Below the pieces are notes generated by a model, which saw only the letters and a program-made list of their open reading frames with translations, searched no databases and was not told the DNA's origin. DNA of 59,155 nucleotides. Origin: Bacteroidota bacterium. GTDB taxonomy: Bacteria > Bacteroidota > Bacteroidia > JABEUT01. Position numbers and translations under genes: made by a program. The stretch is taken from the NCBI GenBank assembly GCA_013285805.1, contig JABDGY010000004.1:1-59155 (forward strand). Direction: 5' to 3'. Positions 11,042-45,368 of this stretch are shown one piece after another. How positions within the stretch are numbered: position 1 is the stretch's first letter; every line of letters starts with the position of its first letter.

Positions 11042-13228
11042 CTATACCCGTATTCCGATTATAAGCACATCATCAACTTGTTCAAGGCTACCTTTCCATT
11101 TATCAAACTCAGTTTCTAATTCCTTTTTCTGCTCAACCATTGGCCTGTTGCTGATAGCCAGCAGCTTTTCCTGCAGTTGCTTGTATTTAAATTTTTTGCC
11201 TTTAGGCCCGCCAAACTGGTCGGCATACCCATCGGTAAACAGGTACAGTATATCGCCTTTTTTTAAACTTAATTTGTGCGTGGAAAACTGTTTAGGGTTA
11301 TCTGTTTTACCTATGGGTTGTTTATCGGGTTCCACTTCAATAATGCCTTCGCCTGCAGGAATAATCCATAATGGGTTATAGGCTCCTGCCCAGCTAATGG
11401 CTAATTGCTTTTGGCTAATAGCTACTAATGATATATCCATACCATCCTTCACTTCACTTTCACTTTTATCTCCGAATGGATCCCTATGGGAGAATGTCTC
11501 CAATACAAGTTCCCTTACTTTATCAAGTATTTTACCCGGTTCAGTAATTTTAAATTCCTTCACGGTCCTGTTCAGTGCATTTGAACAAACAACACTTACC
11601 AAAGCGCCAGGAACACCGTGGCCGGTACAGTCGCATGCTGCAATAAGAATAATCTGTTCAGGCATTTCTCCCGACGAAGAATGCCGGGATGTCGTTTCAC
11701 TCCACATCCAGTAAAAATCGCCTGCAACAATATCCTTTGGCTTATACATAACAAACGAATCGGGCAGGTAGGTTTTAATAATGTTCAAAGGCGGCAGTAT
11801 AGCATCCTGTAATCGCTTGGCGTAAATAATAGAATCGAGCACTTCCTTGTTTTTCTCTTCTACTATGGCTTTCTGCCGTTCAATAAGTTCGTTCTGCTTT
11901 TCTACTTCTTCCTTTTGTTTGCTTATTATTATTGTTTTGCGCCTGTTCTGCTGCAAACTACGTGCAATAAAAAAAGCAAAAACAATAACCAGCGCCAGTA
12001 TTCCGCTTATAAAATATATGGTTATACGCTGCTTGCGCGCCTCTACATCGTTCTTTATTTTTATCTTCTCCTCTTCAGCTCTTTGCGCATCCTGTTTTTT
12101 TTCAAACTCGTAATTCATTTCAGCCTCTACCACCTGTTTGGTATTCTCTTCATTCTTCAGGCTGTCGTGCCACTGACGGGCTTTTTCGTAGTTAGCCAGC
12201 GCGCTTTTATAATTCCCCATGCCGCTATCGGCAACTGCCATACACATATAGCCCTCTTCAATATAGTCTTTACTTCCCGATGCCAGCGACTGCATAAGTA
12301 TGGTATCGGCATATATCCTGCCTTTTGCATACTGTTTCATTAAATTATAAATGGTGGAATAGTTAATGAATACCGATTCAAGCCCCCGTTTATAGCCAAC
12401 CTTGCGTTTCAGCACCAATGATTTCCCGACATAATCAAGCGCTTCGTTGTAATTGCCCTTATCCATATATATTTCACCTATGTTGTTATAGGCAATGGCC
12501 ACACCTTCCTGGTCATCGGCCTTCTGTTCCAACTCAATAGTCTTTTTAAAATCATTCAGGGCCTCATCATAATTCTTCATTTTTACATGTATGCCTCCAA
12601 TGTTATTAAGGCTGGCTGTAATGTTGAATTTTTCTTTCACCAATACACTTATATCATAAGCCCTTTGTTCCGTTTTAAGGGCTTCAGCAAAGCGGCCCTG
12701 TTCAGAATATACATTGCCCAGGTTAACAAGGGCAGTTGTCATTCCGACAGAATCTTTCATGTCCTCGCGAATTTTAAGCGCGTTAAGGTTAGCCTGCAAT
12801 GACTGTGGCAGGTTAGCCTGGCGGAAATAAGTAAGCCCTATGCGTGTGTAAAGTGTGGCGGCCTGGCTACTGTCTTTAAGGTTGAGGGATACATTAAGGC
12901 CCATAATAAAATTGCGCAGGGCATCGGCATATTTCAACTTTGAATAGTAAACATTACCAATGCATTTAAATGCTGCAGGTTCGCCAGCCAGGTAATTGAT
13001 ACGGCCACACAGGTCAAGGGCATCAATACCATATTGCATGGCTTTATCTTTCTGGCCCGCCTTATACGTTTTGTCGCTAAGCAACGTAAGTGTGTTTACT
13101 TTGTTGCTGTCATTTTTTTCAACAGCCAGCCTTGTGGTAAGCGAATCTATTATATGTGCCAACGGGCTTTGCGCCCCGGCAATAGAACAGGTAAAAATAA
13201 AGCACACAAAAAGCACTTTGCGAAGCAT
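11042..13228 (-). CDS. TPR sensor - transmembrane - PP2C/SpoIIE-family protein phosphatase
   Basis: The protein has a signal peptide, about 8 TPR units, a coiled coil, one TM helix (ITIYFISGILALVIVFAFFIA) and a PP2C/SpoIIE domain. Domain motifs: DIVAGDFYW, CDCTGHGVPGALVS, DGMDISL, LFTDGYADQFGG, DDVLIIGIRV. It is a paralogue of 29028..31031. Confidence 0.85.
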   Translation of the reverse strand: MLRKVLFVCFIFTCSIAGAQSPLAHIIDSLTTRLAVEKNDSNKVNTLTLLSDKTYKAGQKDKAMQYGIDALDLCGRINYLAGEPAAFKCIGNVYYSKLKYADALRNFIMGLNVSLNLKDSSQAATLYTRIGLTYFRQANLPQSLQANLNALKIREDMKDSVGMTTALVNLGNVYSEQGRFAEALKTEQRAYDISVLVKEKFNITASLNNIGGIHVKMKNYDEALNDFKKTIELEQKADDQEGVAIAYNNIGEIYMDKGNYNEALDYVGKSLVLKRKVGYKRGLESVFINYSTIYNLMKQYAKGRIYADTILMQSLASGSKDYIEEGYMCMAVADSGMGNYKSALANYEKARQWHDSLKNEENTKQVVEAEMNYEFEKKQDAQRAEEEKIKIKNDVEARKQRITIYFISGILALVIVFAFFIARSLQQNRRKTIIISKQKEEVEKQNELIERQKAIVEEKNKEVLDSIIYAKRLQDAILPPLNIIKTYLPDSFVMYKPKDIVAGDFYWMWSETTSRHSSSGEMPEQIILIAACDCTGHGVPGALVSVVCSNALNRTVKEFKITEPGKILDKVRELVLETFSHRDPFGDKSESEVKDGMDISLVAISQKQLAISWAGAYNPLWIIPAGEGIIEVEPDKQPIGKTDNPKQFSTHKLSLKKGDILYLFTDGYADQFGGPKGKKFKYKQLQEKLLAISNRPMVEQKKELETEFDKWKGSLEQVDDVLIIGIRV

Positions 13229-13297: not shown

Positions 13298-14569
13298 CTA
13301 CCTCTGCAGAATTAGCTTTCCGCTGCTTATGGATTCACCCTTTCCTGAGGTAATGCGATATAGGTAAATGCCGGCCGGCTGACCGCTAATATCAATTTTT
13401 ATTGAGCTATTAGCTAATGGCCATTGGCTGTTAGCTATTTGCTGGCCTAATACATTATAAACCTCAAGTCGGCTATTAGCTAATAGCCATTGGCTACTAG
13501 CTTGTAGAATAAATACACCGTTGCCCGGGTTAGGATAAACAGTTACAGAATTTGATGAAGAGAGTTCATTAATGCCTGCAGGGTTGGGTGTCCATTGGGC
13601 TATGTTATGGGCGGCAATACCACCCGTGCTGGTAAAATCACCGCCTACATATAATACACTGTCGTATGCTGCAAGGCAGGTAACATTGTTATTTACCCCA
13701 TTGCCTAATGCGCTCCATGCCGAACCGTTCCATGCGGCTATGTAATTGGCGGGTTTACCGCCGGCACTGTCAAATTCCCCGCCCACAATTAGCTGGCCAT
13801 TAAATACAGTCATGGTAAGGACAATAAAATTTACACCACCGCCAACAGGGGCCCAGTTTGTATCGTTCCATACTGCAATATTGCTTGCATATTTACCACC
13901 TGCACTGTCGAAAAAGCCCGCGGCGTATAGCTCTCCATTATACGTAGTAAGGGCGTATATAGAGCCGTTTATGCCACTGCCCACAGTTTCCCACGATGTG
14001 TCGCCCCGCATAGCTATATTATTGGCAACACCGCTTGCCTGGGCAAAATTGCCCCCGGCGTAAAGCGAGCCATTGTAAACTGCAAATGCATATACACTGT
14101 TTATGGCTCCTTTGTCGGCTACCGTCCAGCCATGGCCGGCCCATACTTCAAAGTCAGAAAGGCCACCTGAGTAAAGGTTACCGTTATATTCAACCAATGC
14201 ATTAGTTCCCAGCGTACCGCCGCCCATAGCGTTCCATGCAGTGTCGCCCCATTCGGCAACATTTTGTATAGGAGTACTAAGTGCCCCGCCAATAATTAGG
14301 TTGTTGTTATATATTATAGATGTATTTGCCGATGCGCCCGCTAATCCCGATGTGGTTACCCATGAAGAACCGCTCCATTCAAGCACAGTGGCACGGGGCG
14401 AACAGGCAACCAGGTTACTTACGCCTGCGAATAGTTGGCCATTGTAAATACCCAGGAAAGTGGCATTACCCGGTGCATAGGTTTGCGTACCCACAGCCGA
14501 CCATGTTTGCCCAATCGCTAAGTAAGAAGTAAAAAGTAATAAGTAAAAACTGAGGTATACTTTTCTCAT
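13298..14569 (-). CDS. Secreted beta-propeller (Kelch-like) protein with a T9SS type A CTD
   Basis: It has a signal peptide and repeated blades (IAVWNDTNWAPVGGG, IAAWNGSAWSALGNG, VAEWGDTAWNAMGGG). The CTD reads VTVYPNPGNGVFILQ..VYNVLGQQ..AGIYLYRI. It is a paralogue of 7677..8978. Confidence 0.8.
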   Translation of the reverse strand: MRKVYLSFYLLLFTSYLAIGQTWSAVGTQTYAPGNATFLGIYNGQLFAGVSNLVACSPRATVLEWSGSSWVTTSGLAGASANTSIIYNNNLIIGGALSTPIQNVAEWGDTAWNAMGGGTLGTNALVEYNGNLYSGGLSDFEVWAGHGWTVADKGAINSVYAFAVYNGSLYAGGNFAQASGVANNIAMRGDTSWETVGSGINGSIYALTTYNGELYAAGFFDSAGGKYASNIAVWNDTNWAPVGGGVNFIVLTMTVFNGQLIVGGEFDSAGGKPANYIAAWNGSAWSALGNGVNNNVTCLAAYDSVLYVGGDFTSTGGIAAHNIAQWTPNPAGINELSSSNSVTVYPNPGNGVFILQASSQWLLANSRLEVYNVLGQQIANSQWPLANSSIKIDISGQPAGIYLYRITSGKGESISSGKLILQR

Positions 14570-16187: not shown

Positions 16188-16222
16188 AATAGTGCGGAGA
16201 GCGAAGAAAGAGTCTGTTTCAT
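16184..16222 (-). pseudogene. 12-codon relic of the 5' end of a third propeller paralogue
   Basis: The minus strand reads atgaaacagactctttcttcgctctccgcactattttag (MKQTLSSLSALF*). This mirrors the MKHTLSIF.. starts of the two upstream paralogues. It is preceded by the same junction, cattgcggcaatttta, that is found at 17605-17620. Confidence 0.45.
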
Positions 16223-17607
16223 TGCGGCAATTTTACTTTCAGCAGGGTTGAGGTGGCTTTATCTAAAATATAAGCAATTCCACTGGCATCATCACTCCAT
16301 AAAATACTGTATTCTGCCTTTTGCACTACAAAATCATTAGGGTTATCGCGGTTTATAAAGTAGGTATACTGGGTTGACGATTTTTTAGCAAATACTTTGT
16401 CTTCCATATTAACTACCAGGAAGTTTTTAAAAAGATGTAAATCATAGAAGGGGTAATCCACATCATGGTCATAGCTCCTTGTCCAATTCACAACCCCGGT
16501 TTTTTCATTAATGCATACAAGCGATGAGCTGCCATTAAGTACAAATGCGTTTCTGCCATCGGCATCAAGCGTAGTATAGGTACTTTTAAGCTGAATGCTT
16601 CTGTCCTGGAAAACCTCCTGGCTTATGGCCCACTTTCGTTTAAATGTTTTTATGTCATAGGCATATAATGAGTCGTTGCGGTTAAATATGGTTGAAGAAT
16701 CGGGTATATTGGTAAAGAGATTTACACTTTGGTCAAAACCCACGTTCAATGTACGAATCTCTTTCCCCGTTTTCCTGTCTACAGATACCAGAAAATAGAT
16801 CAGGTTCGACATGTTTTCTTCTGAAAGGAGCAGCCCATTTTCATTGTTACTTAAAAAACTATAATTGGTCAGGGCCGATTTTTCAAATGGTTTGTATCTC
16901 CATAGTATTTTCAGGCCAGGGATGTTAAAACATGTAATGCCGTTATCAAGCGATATGGCAGTGTCTCCATACTGTGCATCGGGATGGTATTCGCATTGGG
17001 CTGCAATTATTATTTTGCCGTTTCGTGTATCTATTCCCACTAACGACTGCGGAGGCTCCTCAGTATATTTTTCTAAGCGGTTCGATGTTGTACCATCACT
17101 ATTTGTTACCTTTTTCATAAGGTATTGGGGTTGGCAGCTGAAATAAAGAAAGTTGCCTGTGAAGTACGATTCATAATACCTATACATTGCTCCGCCACCG
17201 GGCTTGTCGGCCTTAAGCGCCGAGTCTATATTTACGGTCCATGTGGGTTTTCCCGTATATATGTTATAGCCCGTTATATTGCGTTCGCTCTCGCTTATCA
17301 TAGTACCGTTTTCATAAAAGGTATAATATTTGTTCGCAGGCGTTTTGCGAATCACTTTTCCTGTTTTCGCTGAGAAAACCATTACTTCTCTCTTTTGTCC
17401 CTTATTTACCTGGCTTTTATAAAGCACTACAAGGCTGTCGCACAAATGAATATCGGCGCGCCATATTTCAAGGCTATCGAGCTCAGGAGAACAATATTTC
17501 CATAAAGGGTTTTGTATGGCATTGAAACAATCTTGTGCAGTTGGCTGCTGGGCTGAAGCACAGAGAAAGAGGAACAGAGCGGAGAATATAGAAAGAGTGT
17601 GTTTCAT
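16219..17607 (-). CDS. Secreted PQQ-like/BamB-like beta-propeller repeat protein (tandem paralogue 1)
   Basis: It has a signal peptide (MKHTLSIFSALFLFLCASAQ). Motifs of the form ..G(K/T)..W recur about every 40 aa (TGKPTWTV, GLKILWRY, KRKWAIS, TGVVNWTR). The family call is by eye. Confidence 0.7.
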   Translation of the reverse strand: MKHTLSIFSALFLFLCASAQQPTAQDCFNAIQNPLWKYCSPELDSLEIWRADIHLCDSLVVLYKSQVNKGQKREVMVFSAKTGKVIRKTPANKYYTFYENGTMISESERNITGYNIYTGKPTWTVNIDSALKADKPGGGAMYRYYESYFTGNFLYFSCQPQYLMKKVTNSDGTTSNRLEKYTEEPPQSLVGIDTRNGKIIIAAQCEYHPDAQYGDTAISLDNGITCFNIPGLKILWRYKPFEKSALTNYSFLSNNENGLLLSEENMSNLIYFLVSVDRKTGKEIRTLNVGFDQSVNLFTNIPDSSTIFNRNDSLYAYDIKTFKRKWAISQEVFQDRSIQLKSTYTTLDADGRNAFVLNGSSSLVCINEKTGVVNWTRSYDHDVDYPFYDLHLFKNFLVVNMEDKVFAKKSSTQYTYFINRDNPNDFVVQKAEYSILWSDDASGIAYILDKATSTLLKVKLPQ

Positions 17608-17617
17608 TGCGGCAATT

Positions 17618-19105
17618 TTAAAATCCTCTAATACATCTTAATCTGGTTGAGCTGCTAAAGAACACTATGTCCCCTTCACGGGAGAATCGAAATAAATCAT
17701 CTTTGATTTTTAATATCGCCCTGCGGTTGGTATCGTTTTTATCAATAATAATAAGGTTTGTATTAATACAGTCGCCTTTACGGTTGAAATGAGGATTACT
17801 TAGTAGAATAAAATTGTTGGTTGAGATTACCCTGTCAATCAGGGTATGAAGGTTTATCTTATATATAAGATGTCCTTTATCTTGGCTATAGCAAAATAAT
17901 ATACTATCTATAGAAATATAGTAGTGGTTGCTATCGTCAACATTAATATACATATGTTCTTCGCCGAAACGGGAAGTGTTAATTTTTACAGGACTCACAG
18001 GTAAATCTACTTTCCATTCCTCTTTACATTTTCTTAGGTTAATCTTAGCAATTGTATAAGTACAAGTTGAGTCAGATGAACTGTAGTTACGGTTTATGGT
18101 ATAAAGAAAGCTGTCACCCGTACCTGCATAACGGAAATCGTAAGCTGGAAATGCAGCAAGTATCTTGCCGGTTCTAAAGTTTATTTCATTTAGAGTAGCA
18201 GTTTTTGTGAAGGAAACAAAACCTATTTTAGCTGGTTCACCGCTGAAGCTAAATACAGTATCGCCAAATGGAATCAACGCATGAGCCCTTGATAATTTTA
18301 TGGAATCAGGATTGAATACATTATCATTATCTGTCAGGGGTTTATGTGGGTCAAGCCGTTTGGCTACCAATGAATCCTGCCTGCACTTTAAAGGATAGTA
18401 TGCATTACCCCATGTTTCTTTTACAGCAGCAGGGCCACCCCACAATTCTTTTTCGGTTGTTAAATTATACCAACCAAAACTTAATCCTGAAGAATATGAC
18501 AATATCCTATTGTTTCCTATAAATGAAAGACTGCAATTAAGATATGGGAAATAAATATGCTTTATTATATTCCCGGTATTCGCTTTTAGTTCAAAATAAT
18601 TGCTTCCAATATCATCTGTATTTTTTGTCTCTAAAGTGTCTGATATCATGTAAACAGTAGAATCTCTTATGAAAACATTATCGATATTAAAACTATTCCC
18701 GGGTTTTCTGAAAACCCAAACTCTTTTTCCTGTTGCAGGATTAATGCAAATTAGACTATCTGATAAAGCAAAATAAAGTTTATTATACTGCGTTTCAAAT
18801 GTACAATCTTCAGTGGTGTAATTATAGGGCGAAATCCAGGTAAGTTTACCATTTTTATTATTGAATGCCATTGCACGGGCTGATCCTACAACATTGGATA
18901 AAAAACGGATTTTATAGACATAAACAACACATGCGCTATCCTCTACTTGTAATGACTGTGGCCCTATACCGCTCCAAGTAGTATTACCTTTTATTTTCCA
19001 TAAAGGCTTATTATAACTCTTTACAAAATCTTCGGGCGTTGGCCGCTGTGCGAATGTTCCGAAAAACAGGAACAGGCCAAAAAATATAGAAAGAGTGTGT
19101 TTCAT
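17618..19105 (-). CDS. Secreted PQQ-like/BamB-like beta-propeller repeat protein (tandem paralogue 2)
   Basis: Its signal peptide (MKHTLSIFFGLFLFFGTFAQ) shares a 23-nt exact 5' end (aatatagaaagagtgtgtttcat on the plus strand) with paralogue 1. Repeats include NGKLTWIS, TGKRVWVF, EKELWGG and KEEWKV. Confidence 0.7.
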   Translation of the reverse strand: MKHTLSIFFGLFLFFGTFAQRPTPEDFVKSYNKPLWKIKGNTTWSGIGPQSLQVEDSACVVYVYKIRFLSNVVGSARAMAFNNKNGKLTWISPYNYTTEDCTFETQYNKLYFALSDSLICINPATGKRVWVFRKPGNSFNIDNVFIRDSTVYMISDTLETKNTDDIGSNYFELKANTGNIIKHIYFPYLNCSLSFIGNNRILSYSSGLSFGWYNLTTEKELWGGPAAVKETWGNAYYPLKCRQDSLVAKRLDPHKPLTDNDNVFNPDSIKLSRAHALIPFGDTVFSFSGEPAKIGFVSFTKTATLNEINFRTGKILAAFPAYDFRYAGTGDSFLYTINRNYSSSDSTCTYTIAKINLRKCKEEWKVDLPVSPVKINTSRFGEEHMYINVDDSNHYYISIDSILFCYSQDKGHLIYKINLHTLIDRVISTNNFILLSNPHFNRKGDCINTNLIIIDKNDTNRRAILKIKDDLFRFSREGDIVFFSSSTRLRCIRGF

Positions 19106-19224
19106 TCAGACAAATATAATCGTAACTGTCTTTAAGAAAACGTTTGGCAAGGGTGGGTTAGTATGCTAGCAATAAATTAGTAGCTTTGTTTTACTGCCCC
19201 CTACCATTAACGGGCAGATACATT

Positions 19225-23550: not shown

Positions 23551-23615
23551 GGGGGTGTTGAAAACTATATCACATTTATGTTTATTAGTAGTAAACATTG
23601 TGTTTATATTTGCAG
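23551..23615 (+). promoter_or_regulatory. Conserved 65-bp promoter-like motif, copy 1 (upstream of protease-capsid block)
   Basis: The sequence is gggggtgttgaaaactatatcacatttatgtttattagtagtaaacattgtgtttatatttgcag. It matches copy 2 (39599..39663) at 57/65 positions without gaps. It ends with TATATTTG (23605-23612), which fits the Bacteroidetes -7 consensus TAnnTTTG. A TTTA -33-like element lies 20 nt upstream of that box. Confidence 0.6.
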
Positions 23616-23623: not shown

Positions 23624-23705
23624 AGTATTAAGTACAGGGTATTAAGAATTAAGATAAAAACAACAATTCCCGCTACTTAATACTCACTACTTAATACTTG
23701 ATACT
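23624..23705. repeat. Word-hairpin in the 5' leader of the protease gene (AGTATTAAG family)
   Basis: The left arm is agtattaagtacagggtattaagaattaagat. The right arm is ctacttaatactcactacttaatacttgatact, an imperfect reverse complement. The right arm ends at the ATG of 23706. Confidence 0.6.
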
Positions 23706-24770
23706 ATGACTGCAATACCATTCAAACATTACCCGCTCGACGCTCCCGATGAGCAGTGGGATGCCAATGCCGAAGTGGCAAAGGCCAGTACCGACGATCT
23801 GCGCATTATGTGCACCTGGGACGACCCGACCAAGCCTGAACAGAAGAACAGTTACAAGCTGCCGCACCACAAAGCCGACACCTACCACACCAACCTGAAA
23901 GGTGTTATGGCGGCAGGCAATGCTATTATGGGTGCAAGGGGTGGGGTGGAGATACCTAAATACGACCTGGATGCAGTAAAGGCGCACCTACAAAAACATT
24001 ACCACGAATTTGGCCGAACGGCCCCATGGGAAAGCAAAGCGGAATGGCGGTGGTACCAAACTAAGAACACAGGCGGCAAACTGAAGGATGTTGATACTAC
24101 CGGACGTACTGTATGCGGTTACTTTGCCTCATTCAATACTAAGGACAGCGATGGAGATATGTTTGCGCCCGGCTGCTTTGCCAAAAGTATTGCCGAAAAT
24201 AAAGACCGCATTATGCACCTGTTGCAGCACAATACATTGCAACCTATTGGCAGGCCAACGGTACTGAAAGAAGATGCACAGGGATTATATTTTGAAACTC
24301 CCATAGCCAACACCCAACTGGGCGATGATGTGCTGCAACTTTACCGCGATGGTGTGTACAAAGAACACTCCGTAGGTTTTGAAATGATCAATAGTCATCC
24401 TGAGCCTGCCAGCCCCGAATCCTCGGCGGTCGAAGCCTATGTGAATGTGATTAAAGAAGCTAAGCTATGGGAAGGCTCGACGGTAACATGGGGAGCGAAT
24501 AGCAATACACCCTTTATTGGTGTAAAGACGCGAGGCATCGCGTCTCAACAAACAGCGGCAAATATCCTGGATGAGGCCCTGGAGCGCAGTACACTTATTT
24601 ATAAGCAACTGCACCGCGGCAATTTACATGATGATACTTATACACTTCTCGAAATAGAACTTAAGCAACTGCAGGCGCTTCTGGCAGCAAGGCCGTGCGA
24701 TAACACCTTGCCCGCAACTGATGATGCCGGCTTGTCGGTGCTTAGGTCAATTAATAATTTATTCAAATAA
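23706..24770 (+). CDS. HK97-family prohead (capsid maturation) protease with N- and C-terminal extensions
   Basis: The core reads GYFASFNTKDSDGDMFAPGCFAKSI..RIMHLLQHN..PIG..GLYFE..LGDDVLQLYRDGVYKEHSVGF, which matches the S78 prohead protease pattern. It lies immediately upstream of the major capsid gene. Confidence 0.85.
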   Translation: MTAIPFKHYPLDAPDEQWDANAEVAKASTDDLRIMCTWDDPTKPEQKNSYKLPHHKADTYHTNLKGVMAAGNAIMGARGGVEIPKYDLDAVKAHLQKHYHEFGRTAPWESKAEWRWYQTKNTGGKLKDVDTTGRTVCGYFASFNTKDSDGDMFAPGCFAKSIAENKDRIMHLLQHNTLQPIGRPTVLKEDAQGLYFETPIANTQLGDDVLQLYRDGVYKEHSVGFEMINSHPEPASPESSAVEAYVNVIKEAKLWEGSTVTWGANSNTPFIGVKTRGIASQQTAANILDEALERSTLIYKQLHRGNLHDDTYTLLEIELKQLQALLAARPCDNTLPATDDAGLSVLRSINNLFK

Positions 24771-24776
24771 TAGTCG

Positions 24777-24850
24777 AAAGTTCATAAAGTTATAAAGTTC
24801 ATAAAGTAAAACGGACTTTATAAACTTTACAAACTTTCAGACTTTAAAAA
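24777..24850. repeat. Word-hairpin between protease and capsid genes (AAGTTCATAAAGT family)
   Basis: The sequence aaagttcataaagttataaagttcataaagt / aaaacgg / actttataaactttacaaactttcagactt has both arms built of tandem ~10-nt words. Confidence 0.7.
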
Positions 24851-24860
24851 CTAAAGAAAC

Positions 24861-26087
24861 ATGGAAAACAAACAGGTGGATGCTATCGTAAAAGAAATAA
24901 GCGATAACATAAACACCATAAAAACAAAGGGCGAAGCGCAAGATGCGCAACTGAAAGCCCTCGACGCCAAAATAGCGGCCAACCAATGGCAGCTGGGCGA
25001 CAAATATGAAGCTCTGCGTAAGGACTTCGACCAGATGACAGCCATGCTGAAAAAAGGCAGGCTGTTTGGTACAGCCGACCGTGGCATGACCGTAAAGGAT
25101 ATGCTGATAGCGCAAAGAGAAGGGCTGGCAAGCCTTAAAAACAAAGCCGGTATACCGGTGAGCCTCTCGCTGAAAGCCTACCAGCTATTTACCAAATCGG
25201 CAGGTAATATAACAGAAGGTGGCAACTTATTAGGCACCGACCCTATTCCGCCTACAAGGCTGGCAGGCATTTATGCTGACCCCTTAAGGCCTGTGCACCT
25301 GCGCCAGTTTATGAACAGCACCGCTACCGACAGTAACCAGATTCTGTTTAACAAGCTTACCGGTGAAAACGATGGCAGCAGCACAACGGCTGAAGGAACC
25401 AGTGCTACACAAAGCGATTTTACCATTACCGCCGAAGAAGTAATTGTGCGCAAGCTCAATACCTACCTCACCATTTCAAAAGAAATGATGGAAGATGCCG
25501 ATTTTGTAGACAACTACATTAATACGCACGTGGCAGGCAGGTTGCTTATGCAGGAGGATACACAAATACTGAACGGTAACAACACCGCGCCAAACCTGCA
25601 GGGTATTAACCCCATTGCGGCAGCGTATCTTAATCCGGTTATACCCGGAGCCTCATCGAGCAGTATAAACTACTACGATGTGTTGCACCAGGCAGTAACA
25701 CAGGCACGTGTGTCTTACTACCAGCCCAATTACATAATTATTAACCCGAACGATTACAACGCGTTGGTGTTAAGTCGCGACAGCTACGGACGTTACCAGT
25801 TCCCGCAAATGATTAGCGGAGCACCGGGTACATTCTTCATCAATGGCGCGCAGGTAATTTCAAACACCACCCAGGCACAGGGCTACTTTACCGTAGGCGA
25901 TTTCCAACTGGGCGCAACCCTTGCGTATCGCGACGAAATTAACGTTACCTTCAGTAACCAGCACGTAGACAACTTTGTGAAAGGTTTCATTACCGTGCTT
26001 GTTGAAGAGCGTATAGCGAATGTTGTATACAGGCCCAATGCATTTGTATATGGCAACTTTGCACAAGCAGAAGCGAGCGGTTCATAG
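24861..26087 (+). CDS. HK97-fold major capsid protein with an N-terminal coiled-coil (delta/scaffold-like) region
   Basis: An N-terminal coiled coil of ~100 aa is followed by a typical Phage_capsid pattern (FTITAEEVIVRKLNTYLTISKEMMEDADFVDNYINTHVAGRLLMQEDTQILNG..APNLQGI..). It sits downstream of the prohead protease. Confidence 0.9.
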   Translation: MENKQVDAIVKEISDNINTIKTKGEAQDAQLKALDAKIAANQWQLGDKYEALRKDFDQMTAMLKKGRLFGTADRGMTVKDMLIAQREGLASLKNKAGIPVSLSLKAYQLFTKSAGNITEGGNLLGTDPIPPTRLAGIYADPLRPVHLRQFMNSTATDSNQILFNKLTGENDGSSTTAEGTSATQSDFTITAEEVIVRKLNTYLTISKEMMEDADFVDNYINTHVAGRLLMQEDTQILNGNNTAPNLQGINPIAAAYLNPVIPGASSSSINYYDVLHQAVTQARVSYYQPNYIIINPNDYNALVLSRDSYGRYQFPQMISGAPGTFFINGAQVISNTTQAQGYFTVGDFQLGATLAYRDEINVTFSNQHVDNFVKGFITVLVEERIANVVYRPNAFVYGNFAQAEASGS

Positions 26088-26093: not shown

Positions 26094-26187
26094 AATTAAA
26101 AATTAAAGATTAAAAATGAAAGGTTTACGTTGTTTATAAAAATGGGGTTCTTGAATCTTTAATCCGTAATTTGTAATCTTTAATTAG
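26094..26187. repeat. Word-hairpin downstream of the capsid gene (ATTAAAGATTAAAAAT family)
   Basis: The left arm is aattaaaaattaaagattaaaaatg. The right arm, atctttaatccgtaatttgtaatctttaatt, is its imperfect reverse complement. Confidence 0.65.
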
Positions 26188-26237: not shown

Positions 26238-26285
26238 CCTGTTGAAAACTCATCTGAAATGGTAACATTCATTCTTTGTTTTTGC
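26238..26285 (+). promoter_or_regulatory. TGTTGAAAAC box plus TTTG-containing promoter-like region upstream of 26314
   Basis: The sequence gcctgttgaaaactcatctgaaatggtaacattcattctttgtttttgcc contains the exact decamer TGTTGAAAAC at 26240-26249. The same decamer occurs in the 65-bp motif copies, but the spacing to the TTTGC element here is about 12 nt shorter. Confidence 0.35.
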
Positions 26286-27398: not shown

Positions 27399-27447
27399 GG
27401 GGGAGGGGGTGTATAATTGCCATTTTCCGCCAAAAACCGCCATTAAG
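27399..27447. repeat. G-box plus three 10-bp CCGCCA words
   Basis: The sequence is gggggagggggtgtataattgccattttccgccaaaaaccgccattaag. The same architecture occurs on the opposite strand at 52711..52751. The GGGAGGGGGTGT start is shared with the 5' edge of motif copy 2 (39595-39606). Confidence 0.5.
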
Positions 27448-27470
27448 ATTAATTAGAAACTTCTTTAAAT

Positions 27471-27568: not shown

Positions 27569-28975
27569 ATGAAACTCTCAATACTGATTTGCAGCGTGCA
27601 AAAGCGGCTGCATAAGTTTGCTCAATTAGCTGAGCATTTAGAAAAACAGGCCCAGAACAAGCCCGTTGAAATATTGTGGCTAGGCGATAACAAAAGCATG
27701 ACGGTAGGCGAGAAGCGGAACAAATTGCTGAGCCTGGCTAAAGGCCAATACGTCTGTTTTGTTGACGATGACGATTGGGTTGCAGATGACTATATTGATG
27801 AACTGCTGAAAGGAACAGAATCGGGCGCAGATGTAATTTGTTTTAATGCACTGTACCGCAACCTTGCAACATGCGAGGAGCAACCCGTCAGCTTTGATAT
27901 GGGCAACCTGAATGTGAATGAAAAGCTTACATTAAGCATATGCATTGATACTCCTTTATTTAATGGAGCATCCATTCAGGCATGCATTTTTAATGCTCGT
28001 TGTTTCCCTGTAAATGGTAAAATGAAACTGGTAATAGATACAGCAATTCACATTTCAAGCATCGTCGCCGATAGTGCCGCTATTATTAGTGGAGATACAC
28101 TTATATGGAATTTCGATAGTTTGTCGGACTTAAAGAACGTTGGATGCGTTAGTATGAAAGGTACTGTTGATTCATTACATGCCCCAGACAGTGTGTTTGT
28201 TACCTTACTGGCTACGCCAATTGCAGGAGACTCCATTCCATCAAATAACAATATTACATATTGGGTTAAACCGTTCCCCAATAATTGTGTAGGACTCCCA
28301 TTCGATCCGAATGAAAAAAGCGTATATCCTGCAGGAGATATTTCCTCGACACAGAAACTAACATATACAATCCACTTCCAGAATACTGGTACTGCTGCAG
28401 CACGCGATGTGGCAGTAATTGATTCATTAAGCCCGTACTTAGACCCCACTACGTTAGATGTAATATCAAGTAGCAGCCCTGTTTCTGTGGCAATGTCATC
28501 CGGGAATGTTGTTCAGTTTACATTCAGTAATATAAACCTCCCCGATACAGCGGCAAGTAAAACTGCCAGCGTTGGGGTAGTTGAATATACGATTATACCA
28601 AAAACAAGTGTTGTGGTCGGAGACATAATAAAGAATAAGGCTGGAATTTATTTCGATTCGAACCCTGAAATTGTGACAAATACAACGATGAATAAAATTA
28701 GTAGTGCAGTGGCAGGGCTTCAGGAGATTCAAAAGCCGATGAATATAGCCTGTTTCCCCAATCCGTTTACAACAGTAACAACAATAGTGTTTAATACAAA
28801 TGGCAAGCATTACCTTGAACTTACTGATTTAGCAGGCCGCACCATACGTAGTATACAATGCAGAGGTAATCAATATGAACTAAGCCGTGAGGGCCTTGCT
28901 TCTGGTGTATATTTTATAAAAGCCTATGATGAAGGGCAGAAGTATATGGCTGTGAGTAAGTTAGTTGTGGAGTAG
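27569..28975 (+). CDS. Chimeric ORF: truncated GT2-type glycosyltransferase N-terminus fused to a secreted repeat domain with a T9SS type A CTD
   Basis: Residues 1-~95 look like a cytoplasmic family-2 glycosyltransferase (MKLSILICSV..; VCFVDDDDWVADDYI) with no signal peptide. The remainder is a cell-surface conserved-repeat domain (KLTYTIHFQNTGTAAARDVAVIDSL..LD.TTL) plus a CTD (CFPNPFTTVTTIVF..ASGVYFIKAYD..). Confidence 0.7.
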   Translation: MKLSILICSVQKRLHKFAQLAEHLEKQAQNKPVEILWLGDNKSMTVGEKRNKLLSLAKGQYVCFVDDDDWVADDYIDELLKGTESGADVICFNALYRNLATCEEQPVSFDMGNLNVNEKLTLSICIDTPLFNGASIQACIFNARCFPVNGKMKLVIDTAIHISSIVADSAAIISGDTLIWNFDSLSDLKNVGCVSMKGTVDSLHAPDSVFVTLLATPIAGDSIPSNNNITYWVKPFPNNCVGLPFDPNEKSVYPAGDISSTQKLTYTIHFQNTGTAAARDVAVIDSLSPYLDPTTLDVISSSSPVSVAMSSGNVVQFTFSNINLPDTAASKTASVGVVEYTIIPKTSVVVGDIIKNKAGIYFDSNPEIVTNTTMNKISSAVAGLQEIQKPMNIACFPNPFTTVTTIVFNTNGKHYLELTDLAGRTIRSIQCRGNQYELSREGLASGVYFIKAYDEGQKYMAVSKLVVE

Positions 28976-29027: not shown

Positions 29028-31031
29028 ATGCACTGCATTAGAGAGTTAAAAGCCTATCAAGTTTGTAAAGTTCATAAAGTTGTATTGGTCTGCTTTATAA
29101 CTTTTTGCTTTATAACCTTTCCGCTTATTGCCCAGCACCATAAAATAGATTCGCTGATGGCATTGGTGAAAAGCGATAAGGACGATACGGATAAAGTAAA
29201 CCACCTCAACGGCCTCAGCTCTTTATATAAAACATTGGGTAACCTTGATACATCAATGTATTATGTTACCAATGGCATGAAGCTTTCAAAGCAATTGAAT
29301 TTTACCCGTGGTATTGCCAAATGCTATAATATAATGGGTAACGTATATGTAGACAGGGGCGATTATCCTAATGCACTCGACAATTATTTTAAGGCTAAAA
29401 AAGTAAATGAAGATGCCGGCAATAGATCAGAGGTGGCAAAAAACCTCAGCAATATCGGCTCGGCATACAAAGGCATGGGCGATTATAAAAAGGCGCTCGA
29501 CTACGATTTCCAGGCATTGAAAATATACGAAGATATTGGAAGCGATTGGGGCATTGCCAATACCAGTGGTAATATTGGTAATATATACGACAATGAGGGT
29601 ATTTACAAAGATGCCCTGGACTATGATATGAAATCGCTGGTAATGTTCGAAAAGATAGGAGATAAAACAAGCATAGCCAGGAACACGGGCAACATAGGTA
29701 ATGTGTACGATGATTTGGGAAAATATGATGAAGCCCTTGAATATGATTTTAAATCGCTTGAAATGTATAAGGCATTAAACGATGAGCATGGAATAGCGCT
29801 AAACATTGGTAACATTGGTAATGTTTATTCTAAAACAGGGAAATACGCTGAAGCCGAAAAGTATCTTACAAGGGCAATTGCGCTTTGCGACAGCATACAT
29901 TTTTTAAGCACAGGGAAAGAATATAACCTTAGTCTTAGCAAATTATATGTGAAAACGGGGCAATGGCAAAAGGCATACAATACATATATTGTTTATACAA
30001 CTGAAAAAGATAGCCTGGTAAACCTGGAAAAAAGTAAGCAACTTGGCCGTGTTGAGGCTAAGGCCGATTATGACAAACAACTGGCGCTTCAACAGGCCGA
30101 CGATGAAAAGAAAATTGAACTGGCTAATGCAAATGCCAAGCGCGAGAAGATATTGATTGCATTTGTGGCGGCAATTGCGCTGGCTGTAACCATTATTGCG
30201 CTGATCATTTCAAGGGCTTTACAGGTAACACGCAGGCAGAAAACAACTATAGAAATAAAAAGTAAAGAGATAAACGACAGTATTGCATACGCAAAACGAT
30301 TGCAGGATGCTATTTTGCCGCCAGTGGGCCTTATTGAAAAACACCTTTCGGAATCATTTGTGTTGTACAAGCCAAAAGATATAGTGGCCGGCGATTTTTA
30401 CTGGCTGGAAAGAGTGGGCGATAAGATACTTATTGCGGCCGCCGATTGTACCGGACATGGTGTACCCGGTGCATTGGTTAGCGTGGTTTGCTCAAATGTA
30501 TTAAACAGGGCGGTGAATGAATTTCATTTAACCGAGCCTGGGAAAATATTAGATAAAGCAAGGGAGTTATTGCTGGATACTTTTTCCCAAAGGGATACAT
30601 TCGGGGAAAAAAGCGCAGGCGATATAATGGATGGTATGGACATATCTCTCGTCGCTATTAGCCTTCAGCCATTAACTGTTAGTTGGAGCGGGGCATATAA
30701 CCCATTGTGGTATATACAAGCCGGAGAAATGAAAGAGATTACGGCTGATAAACAACCGGTAGGTAAATATGAGGCAAGCAGGCCATTTACTACAACTACT
30801 CTTAATTTAAATAAGGGCGATATATTGTACCTGTTTACCGACGGCTATGCCGACCAGTTTGGCGGCCCGAAGGGAAAGAAATTTAAGTATAAGCAGTTCC
30901 AGGAAAAGCTATTGGCCATTAGCCAAAAACCATTAGCTGAACAAGCAAGGTTACTGAACGAAACATTTGAAAACTGGAAAGGAAAAAATGAGCAGACAGA
31001 TGATGTTTGTATAATAGGAGTGAGGGTGTAA
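29028..31031 (+). CDS. TPR sensor - transmembrane - PP2C/SpoIIE-family protein phosphatase
   Basis: It has the same architecture as 11042..13228. The phosphatase domain is about 70% identical by eye (DIVAGDFYW, ADCTGHGVPGALVSVVCSN, DGMDISLVAIS, LFTDGYADQFGGPKGKKFKYKQ, DDVCIIGVRV). Confidence 0.85.
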   Translation: MHCIRELKAYQVCKVHKVVLVCFITFCFITFPLIAQHHKIDSLMALVKSDKDDTDKVNHLNGLSSLYKTLGNLDTSMYYVTNGMKLSKQLNFTRGIAKCYNIMGNVYVDRGDYPNALDNYFKAKKVNEDAGNRSEVAKNLSNIGSAYKGMGDYKKALDYDFQALKIYEDIGSDWGIANTSGNIGNIYDNEGIYKDALDYDMKSLVMFEKIGDKTSIARNTGNIGNVYDDLGKYDEALEYDFKSLEMYKALNDEHGIALNIGNIGNVYSKTGKYAEAEKYLTRAIALCDSIHFLSTGKEYNLSLSKLYVKTGQWQKAYNTYIVYTTEKDSLVNLEKSKQLGRVEAKADYDKQLALQQADDEKKIELANANAKREKILIAFVAAIALAVTIIALIISRALQVTRRQKTTIEIKSKEINDSIAYAKRLQDAILPPVGLIEKHLSESFVLYKPKDIVAGDFYWLERVGDKILIAAADCTGHGVPGALVSVVCSNVLNRAVNEFHLTEPGKILDKARELLLDTFSQRDTFGEKSAGDIMDGMDISLVAISLQPLTVSWSGAYNPLWYIQAGEMKEITADKQPVGKYEASRPFTTTTLNLNKGDILYLFTDGYADQFGGPKGKKFKYKQFQEKLLAISQKPLAEQARLLNETFENWKGKNEQTDDVCIIGVRV

Positions 31032-36994: not shown

Positions 36995-37225
36995 CATAAA
37001 TATTTTCAGAGAGCTCCGAAAATACAAATTGAGTTCTAACAAATAATCTACCTGGAGCAAAGGCTTCGGGAAAGTTTACCGGAAGACCCGACGGGGAATT
37101 ACGGAAGAAACAGGGCCGATAACCGCAAAGGCGGTGTTACCTGCAGGCCAGTGAAAAGAAAAGCAGGTACAACTTATTAAAAACAACTGTGAGGGCTATC
37201 CCGTAAGGTGGCCCTTATTTTATTA
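36995..37225 (+). ncRNA. Candidate small RNA of unknown class in a convergent intergenic gap
   Basis: The 460-bp gap between convergent genes has no ORF. It contains several GC hairpins (ccgcaaaggcgg; acctgc..gcaggt). It ends in a hairpin (gggctatcc cgta aggtggccc, 37193-37214) followed by ttattttatt. The 5' end is undefined. I could not match it to SRP, 6S, tmRNA, RNase P or riboswitch consensus sequences. Confidence 0.25.
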
Positions 37226-37230
37226 AAACG

Positions 37231-37296
37231 ATTTGATAATTTGATGATGTGCCAATTTGATAATGGACCAAACTTGAATTATCAAATCATCAAATT
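37231..37296. repeat. Word-hairpin (ATTTGATAAT/ATCAAATCATCAAAT family)
   Basis: The sequence is atttgataatttgatgatgtgccaatttgataatggaccaaacttgaattatcaaatcatcaaatt. It abuts the stop codon of 37297..38052. Confidence 0.6.
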
Positions 37297-38052
37297 CTAA
37301 TAAGCAATATTCGGGGTCATTTTGCCGAAGGTGTAAACAAGGCTGCCGGTGAGGTTGCCGTAAAACAGAACCGAGCGCATGTAAATTACCTGGTTACTTA
37401 CCGAATTATTATCAATCGCGCTCATAGTGGTATGATATTCAAATTCTGCAATAAGCATATCGGCATTGGCCATTAAAGCCCAATGATTTGAAAGTATATA
37501 GCCAAGCCCTATTCCGGGGCCAAAGCCCAAAGCAGCCGTATTAGCCCTGTATATGGTTTCCGATATTGTATTTGCAGGCGGATAAGTACTATATGAATAG
37601 TTTATGTCGCTTTGGTTCAAAAAAACAGGGCCAAACATAATCCGTAGCTCTATAGCAAATGGGGTAGTGCGCTGCGGCAGTTTTATATTGAGTCCCGTCA
37701 TGAAGTAATATACATGGTATATATTCACCCCGCTTGCCTGGTAAGGGTAATTACTGCTGTCTCCGTAAAACCCCAGGTATTGCGATATGTTGAACTTAGG
37801 GGATAGGTAACCTGCTACAAATGGTATTCCGAAATAAGTCGACTTTAAAGCCAGCAAGCCCGATAATGAAAATTCAGGAGTGTTTTCGCCCCAGAAAGGG
37901 TAAGCGTATTTGGTGTTTGAGGCAGGGCGCAGGTTTATACCATACCCGGCATTTACCGATACGAATGAATGCATATAATGAACGGTATCTTTCTGCGCGC
38001 TGGTAAAGCGCAGGCCTAAAACGAACATTAGTATAGTTAACCGGTATTTCAT
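37297..38052 (-). CDS. Outer-membrane beta-barrel protein, unknown family
   Basis: It has a signal peptide (MKYRLTILMFVLGLRFTSAQ) and Y/G/N-rich alternating strands. The C-terminal strand reads LTGSLVYTFG. The start is taken at the internal MKYR; the ORF track extends to 38082. Confidence 0.6.
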   Translation of the reverse strand: MKYRLTILMFVLGLRFTSAQKDTVHYMHSFVSVNAGYGINLRPASNTKYAYPFWGENTPEFSLSGLLALKSTYFGIPFVAGYLSPKFNISQYLGFYGDSSNYPYQASGVNIYHVYYFMTGLNIKLPQRTTPFAIELRIMFGPVFLNQSDINYSYSTYPPANTISETIYRANTAALGFGPGIGLGYILSNHWALMANADMLIAEFEYHTTMSAIDNNSVSNQVIYMRSVLFYGNLTGSLVYTFGKMTPNIAY

Positions 38053-39598: not shown

Positions 39599-39663
39599 GG
39601 GGGTGTTGAAAACTATATCACTATTTTGTTTAATAATATTAAACAATGTGTTTATATTTGCAT
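39599..39663 (+). promoter_or_regulatory. Conserved 65-bp promoter-like motif, copy 2 (upstream of connector-to-chaperone block)
   Basis: The sequence is gggggtgttgaaaactatatcactattttgtttaataatattaaacaatgtgtttatatttgcat. It is 57/65 identical to copy 1 with no gaps. The TATATTTG -7 box lies at 39653-39660. Confidence 0.6.
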
Positions 39664-39670
39664 TGTATTT

Positions 39671-39760
39671 AATTTGATAATTCGGCCATTTGGTTATTTG
39701 ATGATGAAAGCAGTATAATCTGACAATTATCAAATTACCAAATCATCAAATTACCAAATT
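39671..39760. repeat. Word-hairpin in the 5' leader of the connector gene (ATTTGATAAT family)
   Basis: The left arm is aatttgataattcggccatttggttatttgatgatg. The right arm is aattatcaaattaccaaatcatcaaattaccaaatt. About 27 of 36 positions are complementary. Confidence 0.65.
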
Positions 39761-39783: not shown

Positions 39784-40392
39784 ATGGCCCTCACAGAGAT
39801 AAAAGTAGTAACGCCTCCGGCGACAGAACTAAGCCTGAGCACAGTAAAAAGCTACCTGCGTATAGATTTCACCGACGACGATGCACTCATCACTACACTT
39901 ATACAGTCGGCTCGGGAACGCGCAGAGCAATATTGTAACCGCTCATTCATCACTCAAACGCTGGAGGCATACTACGATAAAATTGAAAAGAACTTTACCC
40001 TGCCACGCTCACCTATACAAAGCGTAAGCACGGTAAAGCTTATTTACCTTAATGAGGTAAGTGTACTTACCCAGAATGCCGATTACTATGTAATGGGTAA
40101 CCAGGACCAGTGGATTACTATTACGGCCACCACCTATAACCTGCCTCCCGGTTTTTCTCCGGGCGATGACCTCAGCCGCTACCACTTGGATGTAACATAT
40201 ACTTCGGGTTACGGCAGTTCATGGACCAATGTGCCTATGGGAATACAGGAGGCCATTATGAAAATGGTAGGAGCGGCTTATGAGGTACGCGAAGATGTGG
40301 CCCAATTAAGCACAAAAGGCATCAGCAACCTGATGGTAATACCTAACGACGCAAAGAGCCTGCTCAATGCCTATAGAGTAATTCCACTATAA
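39784..40392 (+). CDS. Phage gp6-like head-tail connector (adaptor) protein
   Basis: The N-terminus LSLSTVKSYLRIDFTDDDALITTLIQSARERAEQYCNRSFITQT is the classic gp6-like (Phage_connect_1) signature. Confidence 0.8.
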   Translation: MALTEIKVVTPPATELSLSTVKSYLRIDFTDDDALITTLIQSARERAEQYCNRSFITQTLEAYYDKIEKNFTLPRSPIQSVSTVKLIYLNEVSVLTQNADYYVMGNQDQWITITATTYNLPPGFSPGDDLSRYHLDVTYTSGYGSSWTNVPMGIQEAIMKMVGAAYEVREDVAQLSTKGISNLMVIPNDAKSLLNAYRVIPL

Positions 40393-40394
40393 AC

Positions 40395-40480
40395 GATGAA
40401 TTATGAATGATGAGTTATAAGTGACAAAAAAACTGTATGTCAATTCATAAATCTTAATTCATAATTCTTAAATCTTAAAT
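40395..40480. repeat. Word-hairpin between connector and head-closure genes (GAATTATGAAT / AATTCATAA family)
   Basis: The left arm gatgaattatgaatgatgagttataagtgac and the right arm aattcataaatcttaattcataattcttaaatcttaaat are imperfect complements. Confidence 0.55.
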
Positions 40481-40485
40481 GGAAC

Positions 40486-40824
40486 ATGATTGGTTCAATG
40501 CGATATAAACTAAATATAGAACAACTCTCCACCACACCCGATGGCGCCGGAGGTACATCCGCAACCTGGAGCACGCTTAAAACAATGTTTGCCTTTGTCG
40601 AGGTAAACACCTCCGGCCGCCTTTTTATACAGGGCCAGGAATATGTGGGAACATATTATACAATTAACTGCAGGTATAACTCTTTCAAGTATACAGCACC
40701 AATTGAGAACTATCGTTTGGTTGTTGACCCCGACGGAGTGAACCGCAGCTTGAAAATATTAACTATAAATAATCCCGACCTGCTGAAAGTGTATTTAACT
40801 ATAACAGCAATTGATAACGGGTAA
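40486..40824 (+). CDS. Phage head-closure / head-tail joining protein
   Basis: It is 112 aa and reads ..PDGAGGTSATWSTLKTMFAFVEV.SGRLF..GQE....Y.I..RY... Both the position and the pattern fit the SPP1 gp16/HK97 head-tail joining family. Confidence 0.7.
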   Translation: MIGSMRYKLNIEQLSTTPDGAGGTSATWSTLKTMFAFVEVNTSGRLFIQGQEYVGTYYTINCRYNSFKYTAPIENYRLVVDPDGVNRSLKILTINNPDLLKVYLTITAIDNG

Positions 40825-40826
40825 CA

Positions 40827-40857
40827 TTAATTAAGAATTAAAAATTAAAGATTAAAA
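40827..40857. repeat. Single word arm (ATTAAAGATTAAAAAT family)
   Basis: The sequence is ttaattaagaattaaaaattaaagattaaaa. It fills the whole 33-nt spacer between two phage genes. Confidence 0.5.
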
Positions 40858-41280
40858 ATGTTTTCATTGAAGATAGAAGGAGTGGATGATTTGTTGAATA
40901 AGTATCAACAGGCAACAGATGCATTAGCAGAGCAAGTAAAGGTGGCTGTGGCAGAAACAGCAGAGACTATAGCCGATAATGCAAGGCAAAATTGTAGGGG
41001 AAAACTTAAAGATTCTATTGCAGTAAATATAGCTGATGACAGGATGAGTGCAGTAATAAGCGCAGACCACCCGGATGCAGCCTTTATAGAATACGGTGTT
41101 AGAATTCCTGAAATACATACGAAAGATGCAAAGACATTACACTGGAAAGAAGATGGCAAGGATGTCTTTGCGAAATCGGCAAAAGGACATGAAATGGCCC
41201 CACGGCCCTTTATGAATCCTGCATTTGAAGAAAATGCACAAAAATTACTAGATACCTTAAGCGATATTACAGGACAATGA
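40858..41280 (+). CDS. HK97 gp10-like tail/neck component
   Basis: It is 140 aa, with GKLKDSI.., AAFIEYGV.. and APRPFMNPAFEEN as in HK97-gp10_like proteins. Confidence 0.7.
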   Translation: MFSLKIEGVDDLLNKYQQATDALAEQVKVAVAETAETIADNARQNCRGKLKDSIAVNIADDRMSAVISADHPDAAFIEYGVRIPEIHTKDAKTLHWKEDGKDVFAKSAKGHEMAPRPFMNPAFEENAQKLLDTLSDITGQ

Positions 41281-41723: not shown

Positions 41724-41757
41724 CTTTCAACTTTATAAACTTTACAAACTTTAAACT
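41722..41757. repeat. Single word arm (ACTTTATAAACTT family)
   Basis: The sequence is aactttcaactttataaactttacaaactttaaact. It lies in the spacer between two tail genes. Confidence 0.5.
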
Positions 41758-41765
41758 AAAATAAC

Positions 41766-42191: not shown

Positions 42192-42208
42192 TATCAAATT
42201 AGCAGACT

Positions 42209-45311: not shown

Positions 45312-45368
45312 CCTATATGGATTTTGATAAATTTGCAACCTTATCGGTGATTTTAACCCCAAGTAAGT

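Follow-up and report, generated by a model that had tools for sequence, protein, structure and literature searches.

Phage structural genes lie in three blocks in the chromosome of an uncultured soil Bacteroidia, and a sequence of about 65 bp precedes two of these blocks, with a weaker copy before the third. What does this sequence do, and what does its repetition say about the phage genes? The question was examined in a stretch of 59,155 nucleotides (the window; Bacteroidota bacterium, assembly GCA_013285805.1, contig JABDGY010000004.1, positions 1 to 59,155, forward strand). The motif is likely to be a promoter combined with regulator sites, placed in front of each scattered fragment of an old, domesticated tailed-phage gene set; this would make the fragments one co-regulated, gene-transfer-agent-like (GTA-like) regulon. 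Literature searches found no description of such an element in this phylum. The original prediction, made from the sequence alone, was that the motif is a regulon tag. The repeat it described is real, apart from the spacing of the third copy; its reading of the repeat as a regulon tag is supported and can be extended.

The features discussed below are as follows; numbers beginning with L denote loci of related genomes and phages.

23551-23615 (+): motif copy 1, with the distal box GGGGG-TGTTGAAAAC-T (23551-23566), the −33-region half-site TGTTTA (23579-23584), TAAACA (23592-23597), TGTTTA (23601-23606) and the −7 box TATATTTG (23605-23612); predicted transcription start about 23617, leader 89 nt.
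23624-23698 (+): leader hairpin downstream of copy 1; its counterpart after copy 2 lies at 39670-39759.
23706-26087 (+): block 1, S78 prohead protease (23706-24770) and HK97-type major capsid protein (24861-26087).
27569-28975 (+): glycosyltransferase (GT2) remnant, fused to DUF7619 and a type IX secretion (T9SS) sorting domain; possibly still read from copy 1.
39599-39663 (+): motif copy 2, with TGTTGAAAAC (39604-39613), TGTTTA (39627-39632), TAAACA (39640-39645), TGTTTA (39649-39654) and the −7 box (39653-39660); predicted transcription start about 39665, leader 119 nt.
39784-44376 (+): block 2, gp6-like adaptor, head completion protein, HK97 gp10-like protein, tail terminator, tail tube, tail assembly chaperone, an 84-aa ORF and a 460-aa ORF (phrog_1848).
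44439-44500 (+): motif copy 3, a divergent member of the 34-nt spacing class, with the distal box GGGGT-TGTTAATAAA (44439-44453), TAAATA (44479-44484) and the −7 box TATATTTG (44492-44499); predicted transcription start about 44504, leader 19 nt.
44523-46868 (+): block 3, 262-aa tape-measure-like protein, methyltransferase, 84-aa membrane protein (holin-like by position and hydrophobicity) and GH108 endolysin.

Copies 1 and 2 align without gaps at 57/65 identity and both end in TATATTTG(C). The 30 nt on either side match at only 7/30 and 8/30, which is chance level; conservation does stop abruptly at both edges, as predicted. The first 23 nt, GGGGGTGTTGAAAACTATATCAC, are identical in the two copies and occur exactly twice in the window, against 0 in 100 shuffles. 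Copy 3 is 38/62 identical only when its GGGG is aligned with the 2nd-5th G of copy 1. The original prediction gave copy 3 the same spacing as the other copies; however, the distance from TGTT to the −7 box is 48 nt rather than 49, so the spacing is 1 nt shorter. Copy 3 is still far above chance: a two-box weight matrix built from 33 distinct family members scores it at 31.1 bits, while copies 1 and 2 score 66.3 and 66.0 bits and the maximum over 30 shuffled windows is 4.0.

The distal half of the motif had been described as perfectly conserved. Between genomes, only GGG(G/T)-TGTTGAAAAC-T is conserved; the following 8 nt, TATATCAC, are identical in copies 1 and 2 but occur in no other genome. 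The distal half of copy 1 is also closer to copy 2 (24/26) than to its orthologue in L004 (18/26). This suggests local homogenisation within this genome, and explains why the 23-mer appeared perfect. Two further exact TGTTGAAAAC boxes lie at 26240-26249 (+) and at 52898 (−). The second, within 52903-52881 (−), reads GGGGCTGTTGAAAACATCATCAC, which is 19/23 identical to the distal half of copies 1 and 2. Neither has a proximal box at the family spacing, and both are left unexplained. One precedes the 140-aa ORF after the capsid gene, while the other follows the SprB-like gene, upstream of gldF/gldG. Four occurrences of this 10-mer in 59 kb is far above chance.

The window is a Bacteroidota chromosome; it carries SprB and CHU_C proteins, T9SS sorting domains, GldF/GldG-like ABC components and metabolic genes. 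All phage-like genes are on the + strand; those of block 1 were identified by Pfam. Blocks 1 and 2 are separated by about 12 kb of cellular genes, including TPR-SpoIIE, outer membrane proteins, DUF2071, asparaginase and an RDD protein. The blocks are flanked by gliding, T9SS and metabolic genes, and the window contains no integrase or repressor, as expected for a GTA. It also contains no terminase, portal or candidate regulator; completeness of the element in this organism is therefore not shown. A class I SAM methyltransferase (Methyltransf_24/CmcI-like; 45369-46049) lies inside block 3, between the tape-measure-like gene and the lysis genes; no counterpart was seen in the fetched parts of the related phages.

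The capsid protein has 88-95% identical homologues on long contigs of genomes assembled from metagenomes (MAGs). There too the protease-capsid pair stands alone among host genes, with recurring neighbours (patatin, TPR-SpoIIE, GT2). Upstream of these orthologous protease genes (L004, L005 and L007), which were found through capsid homology rather than through the motif pattern, the same gap-free architecture appears: [GGGT]TGTTGAAAAC(T), about 26 variable nt with a T-run, and TAAACA-N3-TGTTTA-NN-TTTG(CA). Orthologous adaptor-block promoters are found in L041, L048, L131, L138 and L145. The copy-3 variant recurs upstream of the tape-measure-like orthologues in two distant relatives, L131 and L107, and its distal box resembles that of L004. 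Two spacing classes exist, with 34 or 35 nt between TGTTGAAAAC and TGTTTA.

Aligned family members hold 1.6-1.7 bits per position in the two boxes, against 0.17-0.20 bits in the flanks. Several of these columns were fixed by the search patterns, so only the unforced positions and the homology-found orthologues are free of ascertainment bias; the unforced conserved positions are the GGGT before the distal box, the T after it, the TTTTG run and TA.TAAA. Synonymous sites between these genomes are saturated (dS 1.1-2.3), while the coding genes are under strong purifying selection. dN/dS is 0.05-0.06 for the capsid, 0.07-0.09 for the protease, 0.03-0.04 for the adaptor and 0.10 for the tube (0.03-0.13 overall); there are no stop codons in the orthologues for which dN/dS could be estimated, and one stop in the 26%-identity alignment of the 460-aa ORF with L132. 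Recency therefore cannot explain conservation of a non-coding 60-mer.

A genome scan had been named in advance as the test of the regulon reading, which would fail if tens of copies turned up with no enrichment near phage-like genes. The reading passed: in public metagenomes and genomes the motif is confined to one lineage of uncultured Bacteroidia. The strict pattern TGTTGAAAAC-N26-29-AAYA-N3-TGTTTA-N2-TTTG was scanned against one genome for each of 185,579 species and gave 26 loci. Of these, 24 lie in six related uncultured Bacteroidia MAGs (JBKQUY 9, JABDCA 5, JABCZW 3, JABCZY 3, DATHNG 2 and JABDHI 2), and the other two are singletons in other taxa which look like chance. These were exact-pattern scans; the weight matrix was not run over complete assemblies. 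A looser metagenome scan, which was not exhaustive, added more members from forest-soil metagenomes; about half of its hits were background Bacteroidetes promoters.

By tally, 37 of 43 distinct copies precede phage-derived genes or lineage-specific helix-turn-helix (HTH) genes. The downstream genes are small and large terminase (in L128 also portal, PF04860), protease and capsid, the adaptor-to-tail block, a GTA_holin_3TM holin (PF11351; L146 and L035), GH108/lipocalin genes, a GT2 gene (L005), a DUF5681-like small protein, and HTH proteins of 174-199 aa restricted to this lineage (the HTH185 family). JBKQUY carries two terminase large-subunit genes and four motif-preceded small-terminase-like genes (L142 and L148, also L137 and L143), while JABDCA has two small-terminase-like and two HTH185 paralogues, each with its own motif; this reflects either paralogue expansion or a mixed bin. 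Portal loci in two further genomes gave no matrix hit, only diverged look-alikes.

The remaining six distinct copies are orphans, with no recognisable gene within 450-1000 nt downstream (L129, L130, L141 and L152 in JBKQUY; L153/L029 in JABCZW; L050). The non-coding DNA that follows them is rich in repeated modules, namely AAAATGGCACAC...GTGTGCCATTTT hairpins, TGCTAA..TTAGCA palindromes, and GGGTTGACACGGGTTGACAC with an inverted partner. Housekeeping genes (gatB, yidC, groES, gdhA) come next. These regions might encode motif-driven small RNAs.

More distant capsid homologues (49% identity) lie in contiguous phage genomes (L154, L156 and L157). Their gene order is holin ... terminase, portal, MuF, protease, capsid, GT2, x, adaptor, head completion, gp10-like, terminator, tube, chaperone, tape measure (657 aa) and further genes. 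The window's genes map onto this order. This includes the N-terminus of the GT2 gene at 27569, which is 62-65% identical over about 110 residues to the GT2 gene that follows the capsid gene in these phages. A GT2 gene accompanies the capsid locus in most relatives, and in L005 it has its own motif copy. The contiguous phages carry no motif; their best matrix scores are below 0. A 71%-identity relative (L158) keeps only the proximal box, and a 52% relative (L160) has neither box. The exact 23-mer has no match in IMG/VR, and a capsid-based scan of viral contigs gave one near-identical short contig. Among isolated phages, the INPHARED collection has no motif, and the nearest capsid, from Flavobacterium siphophages, is 29.6% identical. 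GC and GC3 of the phage-derived genes equal those of host genes. The window therefore shows a long-resident, fragmented and selectively maintained derivative of such a phage rather than a prophage, and the motif is a feature of the fragmented state.

The promoter part of the original prediction fits. Every family member has TA[ACT][ACT]TTTG, the −7 element TAHHTTTG of Bacteroidetes sigma-A (sigma-ABfr) promoters as defined in PMC6847099; the copy-3-type promoter upstream of the L131 tape-measure-like gene, which lies outside that set, reads GATATTTG. All copies point at the downstream genes and lie 19-119 nt upstream of start codons. In the numbering of F. johnsoniae promoters (T−12, A−11, T−8, T−7, T−6, G−5; start 4-5 nt after the box; PMC6847099), copy 1 has GGGGG at −66 to −62, TGTTGAAAAC at −61 to −52, TGTTTA at −38 to −33, TAAACA at −25 to −20, TGTTTA at −16 to −11 and TATATTTG at −12 to −5. 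The starts are predictions; no transcript data are available. A −33 element (TTTG about 19-21 nt upstream of the −7 box) is less clear: a conserved T-run (TTTTG) lies 23-24 nt upstream, and the predicted TTTA, part of the TGTTTA half-site, lies 20 nt upstream in the 35-nt spacing class only. This element is weakly defined in general (PMC6847099), and the match could not be called either way. Of 42 TAHHTTTG sites in the window, only the three copies carry TAAAYA at −25 to −20, and only two have TGTT before the TA; the proximal box is therefore not a generic promoter feature. As RNA, the motif does not fold better than shuffled sequence (z −0.4 and −0.7).

The best explanation is that the motif is a dedicated transcriptional control cassette, which combines a Bacteroidetes primary-sigma promoter (−7 box TAHHTTTG and a T-rich −33 region) with two regulon-specific sites. 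These are a distal box, GGGT-TGTTGAAAAC-T, at about −65 to −51 (centred near −57), and a proximal box, TAAAYA-N3-TGTTTA, at about −25 to −11 (centred near −18), which overlaps the −7 box. In this view, one copy stands in front of each fragment of an ancient siphovirus-like late operon which has been broken up and fixed in the chromosome. A lineage-specific trans-acting factor would bind the distal box, an activator position, and the proximal box, either an operator or the site of a spacer-bound activator, and switch all fragments on together, so that heads, tails, the packaging machinery and lysis proteins are made at the same time, as in a gene transfer agent. The sequence conservation, gene association, purifying selection, fragmentation relative to intact phage relatives and absence of the motif from those phages rest directly on the data; promoter activity and transcription start, the existence and identity of the binding protein, the activating or repressing sign of the sites, and particle production are inferences, for which no expression or binding data exist. 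The probability of this model is about 0.75; that the motif is a functional shared cis-regulatory cassette of a phage-derived regulon is at least as likely. That the regulon is a working GTA-like particle system is about as likely as not, and that it transfers genes is no more than a tentative suggestion.

All nine JBKQUY copies have T in TAAA[C/T]A, while 12 of 12 copies in JABDCA, JABCZY, DATHNG and JABDHI have C; this is expected if the sites track one trans-acting factor, although concerted evolution would also fit. The small HTH proteins whose own genes carry the motif are candidates only. They have no Pfam domain and form only ten lineage-restricted clusters, profile hits in the PDB to TetR-type HTH motifs are at E ≥ 0.05, and the AlphaFold model of HTH185 (pLDDT 55.6) is too poor for a fold search, so none was run. 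TPR-SpoIIE (PP2C) phosphatase genes lie next to the protease-capsid locus in several genomes (window 29028-31031 and 11042-13228; L005 13159-15375; L133), and in L005 a response-regulator-SpoIIE and histidine-kinase cluster lies upstream. This could be a lead to the signalling input, or it could be coincidence, since the family has several paralogues.

The rival that survives best, although it is less likely than the main model, differs from it only in the sign of control: the proximal palindrome would mainly be an operator for a repressor of the prophage CI or LexA type, which keeps the regulon silent, and the distal box would be secondary. TAAACA-N3-TGTTTA spans −25 to −11 and overlaps the −7 box, a typical repressor position. 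In copies 1 and 2, TGTTTA-N7-TAAACA adds a second inverted repeat over the −33 region, and its outer base covaries (A...T in copy 1, T...A in copy 2). However, in JBKQUY the left half is TAAATA while the right half stays TGTTTA, so strict dyad symmetry is not maintained; copy 3 lacks the right-hand TGTT; and the distal box is conserved at least as well as the palindrome.

It is unlikely that the copies are simply strong constitutive housekeeping-type promoters, with generic UP-like or AT-rich elements and no dedicated regulator. The −7 box is canonical, AT-rich elements near −18 and −28 are common in Flavobacterium promoters and general in Bacteroidetes (PMC6847099), and TGTTTAnnTTTG also turns up in unrelated Bacteroidetes promoters in the loose metagenome scan; part of the proximal box could therefore be generic promoter strength. 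Against this stand the rarity of TAAAYA among the −7-like sites of the window and the distal box, which occurs only in this lineage and almost only before phage-derived genes. In addition, constitutive expression of holin, endolysin and terminase would be lethal or costly.

A functionless relic of recent duplication or gene conversion between copies 1 and 2 is very unlikely: some homogenisation is suggested by TATATCAC, but the boxes are conserved at orthologous sites in genomes with saturated synonymous sites, identity ends exactly at the motif edges, and copy 3 and its orthologues keep the boxes despite low overall identity. Equally improbable is a generic interspersed repeat (REP or MITE-like), a recombination scar or a structured RNA leader, since, although these genomes are rich in intergenic repeats and hairpins and the motif lies at the 5' borders of two blocks, there are only three copies in 59 kb and 2-9 exact-pattern copies per MAG, all in the gene-proximal orientation and without terminal inverted repeats or target duplications, copy 3 lies between two phage genes with no host insertion, no Rfam family matches the window or ten related loci, and conservation is positional, not compensatory. 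An ECF-sigma reading (GAAAAC as a −35 element) was rejected because nothing is conserved 16-17 nt downstream.

Compared with ordinary Bacteroidetes primary-sigma promoters (−33 TTTG/−7 TAnnTTTG; Bayley et al., Chen et al., PMC6847099), the copies have the exact TAHHTTTG box, a T-rich −33 region (TTTTGTTTA at −41 to −33) and leader distances from start codons; they differ in carrying two additional, highly conserved and lineage-specific boxes (−65 to −51 and −25 to −13) which ordinary promoters in the same window lack. Phage late promoters with a dedicated activator site or sigma factor (for example P2 Ogr/P4 Delta sites near −55, Mu C and PBSX Xpf) likewise repeat one cis motif before every late transcription unit, with an upstream site about 55-60 nt before the transcription start. 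There is no sequence similarity to those sites and no homologue of those activators was identified. A P2-Ogr-like TGT-N13-ACA is present only in copy 1 (copy 2 ends in ACT) and is not conserved in other genomes. Since related intact phages lack the motif, it does not look like an inherited phage late promoter.

The multi-locus 'genome' of the Rhodobacter capsulatus GTA (RcGTA), with its GafA/CtrA-controlled promoters, looks functionally similar. In both, phage-derived head, tail, terminase and lysis genes are fixed in the chromosome at several loci, vertically inherited under purifying selection and presumably co-regulated through shared upstream sites; a GTA_holin_3TM holin is present in relatives, and the tape-measure-like protein is short. 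At least six species-level MAGs carry the genes, consistent with vertical inheritance, and terminase, portal and holin are found at other loci in related MAGs. The element is not a member of the RcGTA clade: its ancestor is a different phage, its nearest relatives are Bacteroidia phage contigs (about 49% capsid identity), isolated phages reach at most 30%, and the only GTA-named Pfam hits are a sub-threshold GTA-gp10 match and the holin in relatives; no phylogeny was made. It also differs in phylum, in promoter type (−7/−33) and in its much greater fragmentation, because even the head-tail module is split. A shared cis motif at every block is consistent with host-integrated regulation through a common regulator, but with neither the regulator nor the signal identified this does not decide the matter. 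Particle formation and DNA packaging, the defining GTA properties, are untested; GTA particles package random host DNA, and less of it than is needed to encode the element.

GTAs are well characterised almost only in Alphaproteobacteria and a few other groups. Literature searches found them described in Alphaproteobacteria, Brachyspira, Desulfovibrio, Methanococcus, Bacillus (PBSX) and Faecalibacterium, but none in Bacteroidota. The motif offers a crisp cis-regulatory signature which identifies all members of a scattered phage-derived regulon from sequence alone. It shows how a fragmented late operon can stay coordinated, because each fragment has its own copy of one control cassette, and it gives direct handles for finding the regulator and for testing particle production in abundant but uncultured forest-soil bacteria. 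A more far-reaching possibility, doubtful at present but not excluded, is that soil Bacteroidia of this lineage make a previously undescribed gene transfer agent whose genome is shattered into at least six chromosomal loci. A newly evolved promoter/operator cassette, absent from the ancestral phage type, would re-synchronise these loci and be read by lineage-specific autoregulated HTH proteins; the motif may also drive small non-coding transcripts at the orphan copies.

The leader hairpins downstream of copies 1 and 2 (z −5.6 and −4.0) are probably the generic intergenic hairpin of this genome and not part of the motif, since copy 3 and some orthologues, such as L007, have none. Most intergenic regions of the window carry a long hairpin (24782-24837, 26094-26185, 37214-37304, 40396-40467, 49962-50060 and 13405-13487, besides the two leaders) whose arms are built from short tandem 7-9-nt low-complexity units, for example GTATTAAG, AATTAAAG, ACTTTATAA and GCTATTAGC. 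Each hairpin has its own sequence, and orthologous positions in relatives have hairpins of unrelated sequence; this may be a lineage-specific terminator or insulator style.

Other repeats were also observed. A GC-richer intergenic element of about 75-130 nt (...AGGGATTGTAGTGGAAAACCCGCAG...GTAAAGCCCGAC...) sits in leaders and in the protease-capsid spacer of relatives (L158 2050-2185, 3766-3792 and 5448-5508; L161 6818-6914; L005 9821-9893; L139 2380-2442; L004 1330-1393); it has no Rfam match and is absent from the window. A shared G-run/CCGCCA element (GGGGGAGGGG.G..ATAA..GCCAT....CCGCCAA.AACCGCCATTA) occurs in two unrelated intergenic regions of the window, at 27399-27450 (+) and about 52745-52690 (−), and similar G-rich patches lie near motif copies in relatives (L004, L007, L129 and L130). 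Finally, C-terminal T9SS sorting-domain coding segments are duplicated at 5040-5264 and 5833-6057 (72% identity), and three neighbouring minus-strand genes share a conserved start region (…GTGTGTTTCATTGCGGCAATTTTA) at 16188-16235, 17573-17620 and 19071-19118; these are paralogous gene starts and promoters unrelated to the motif.
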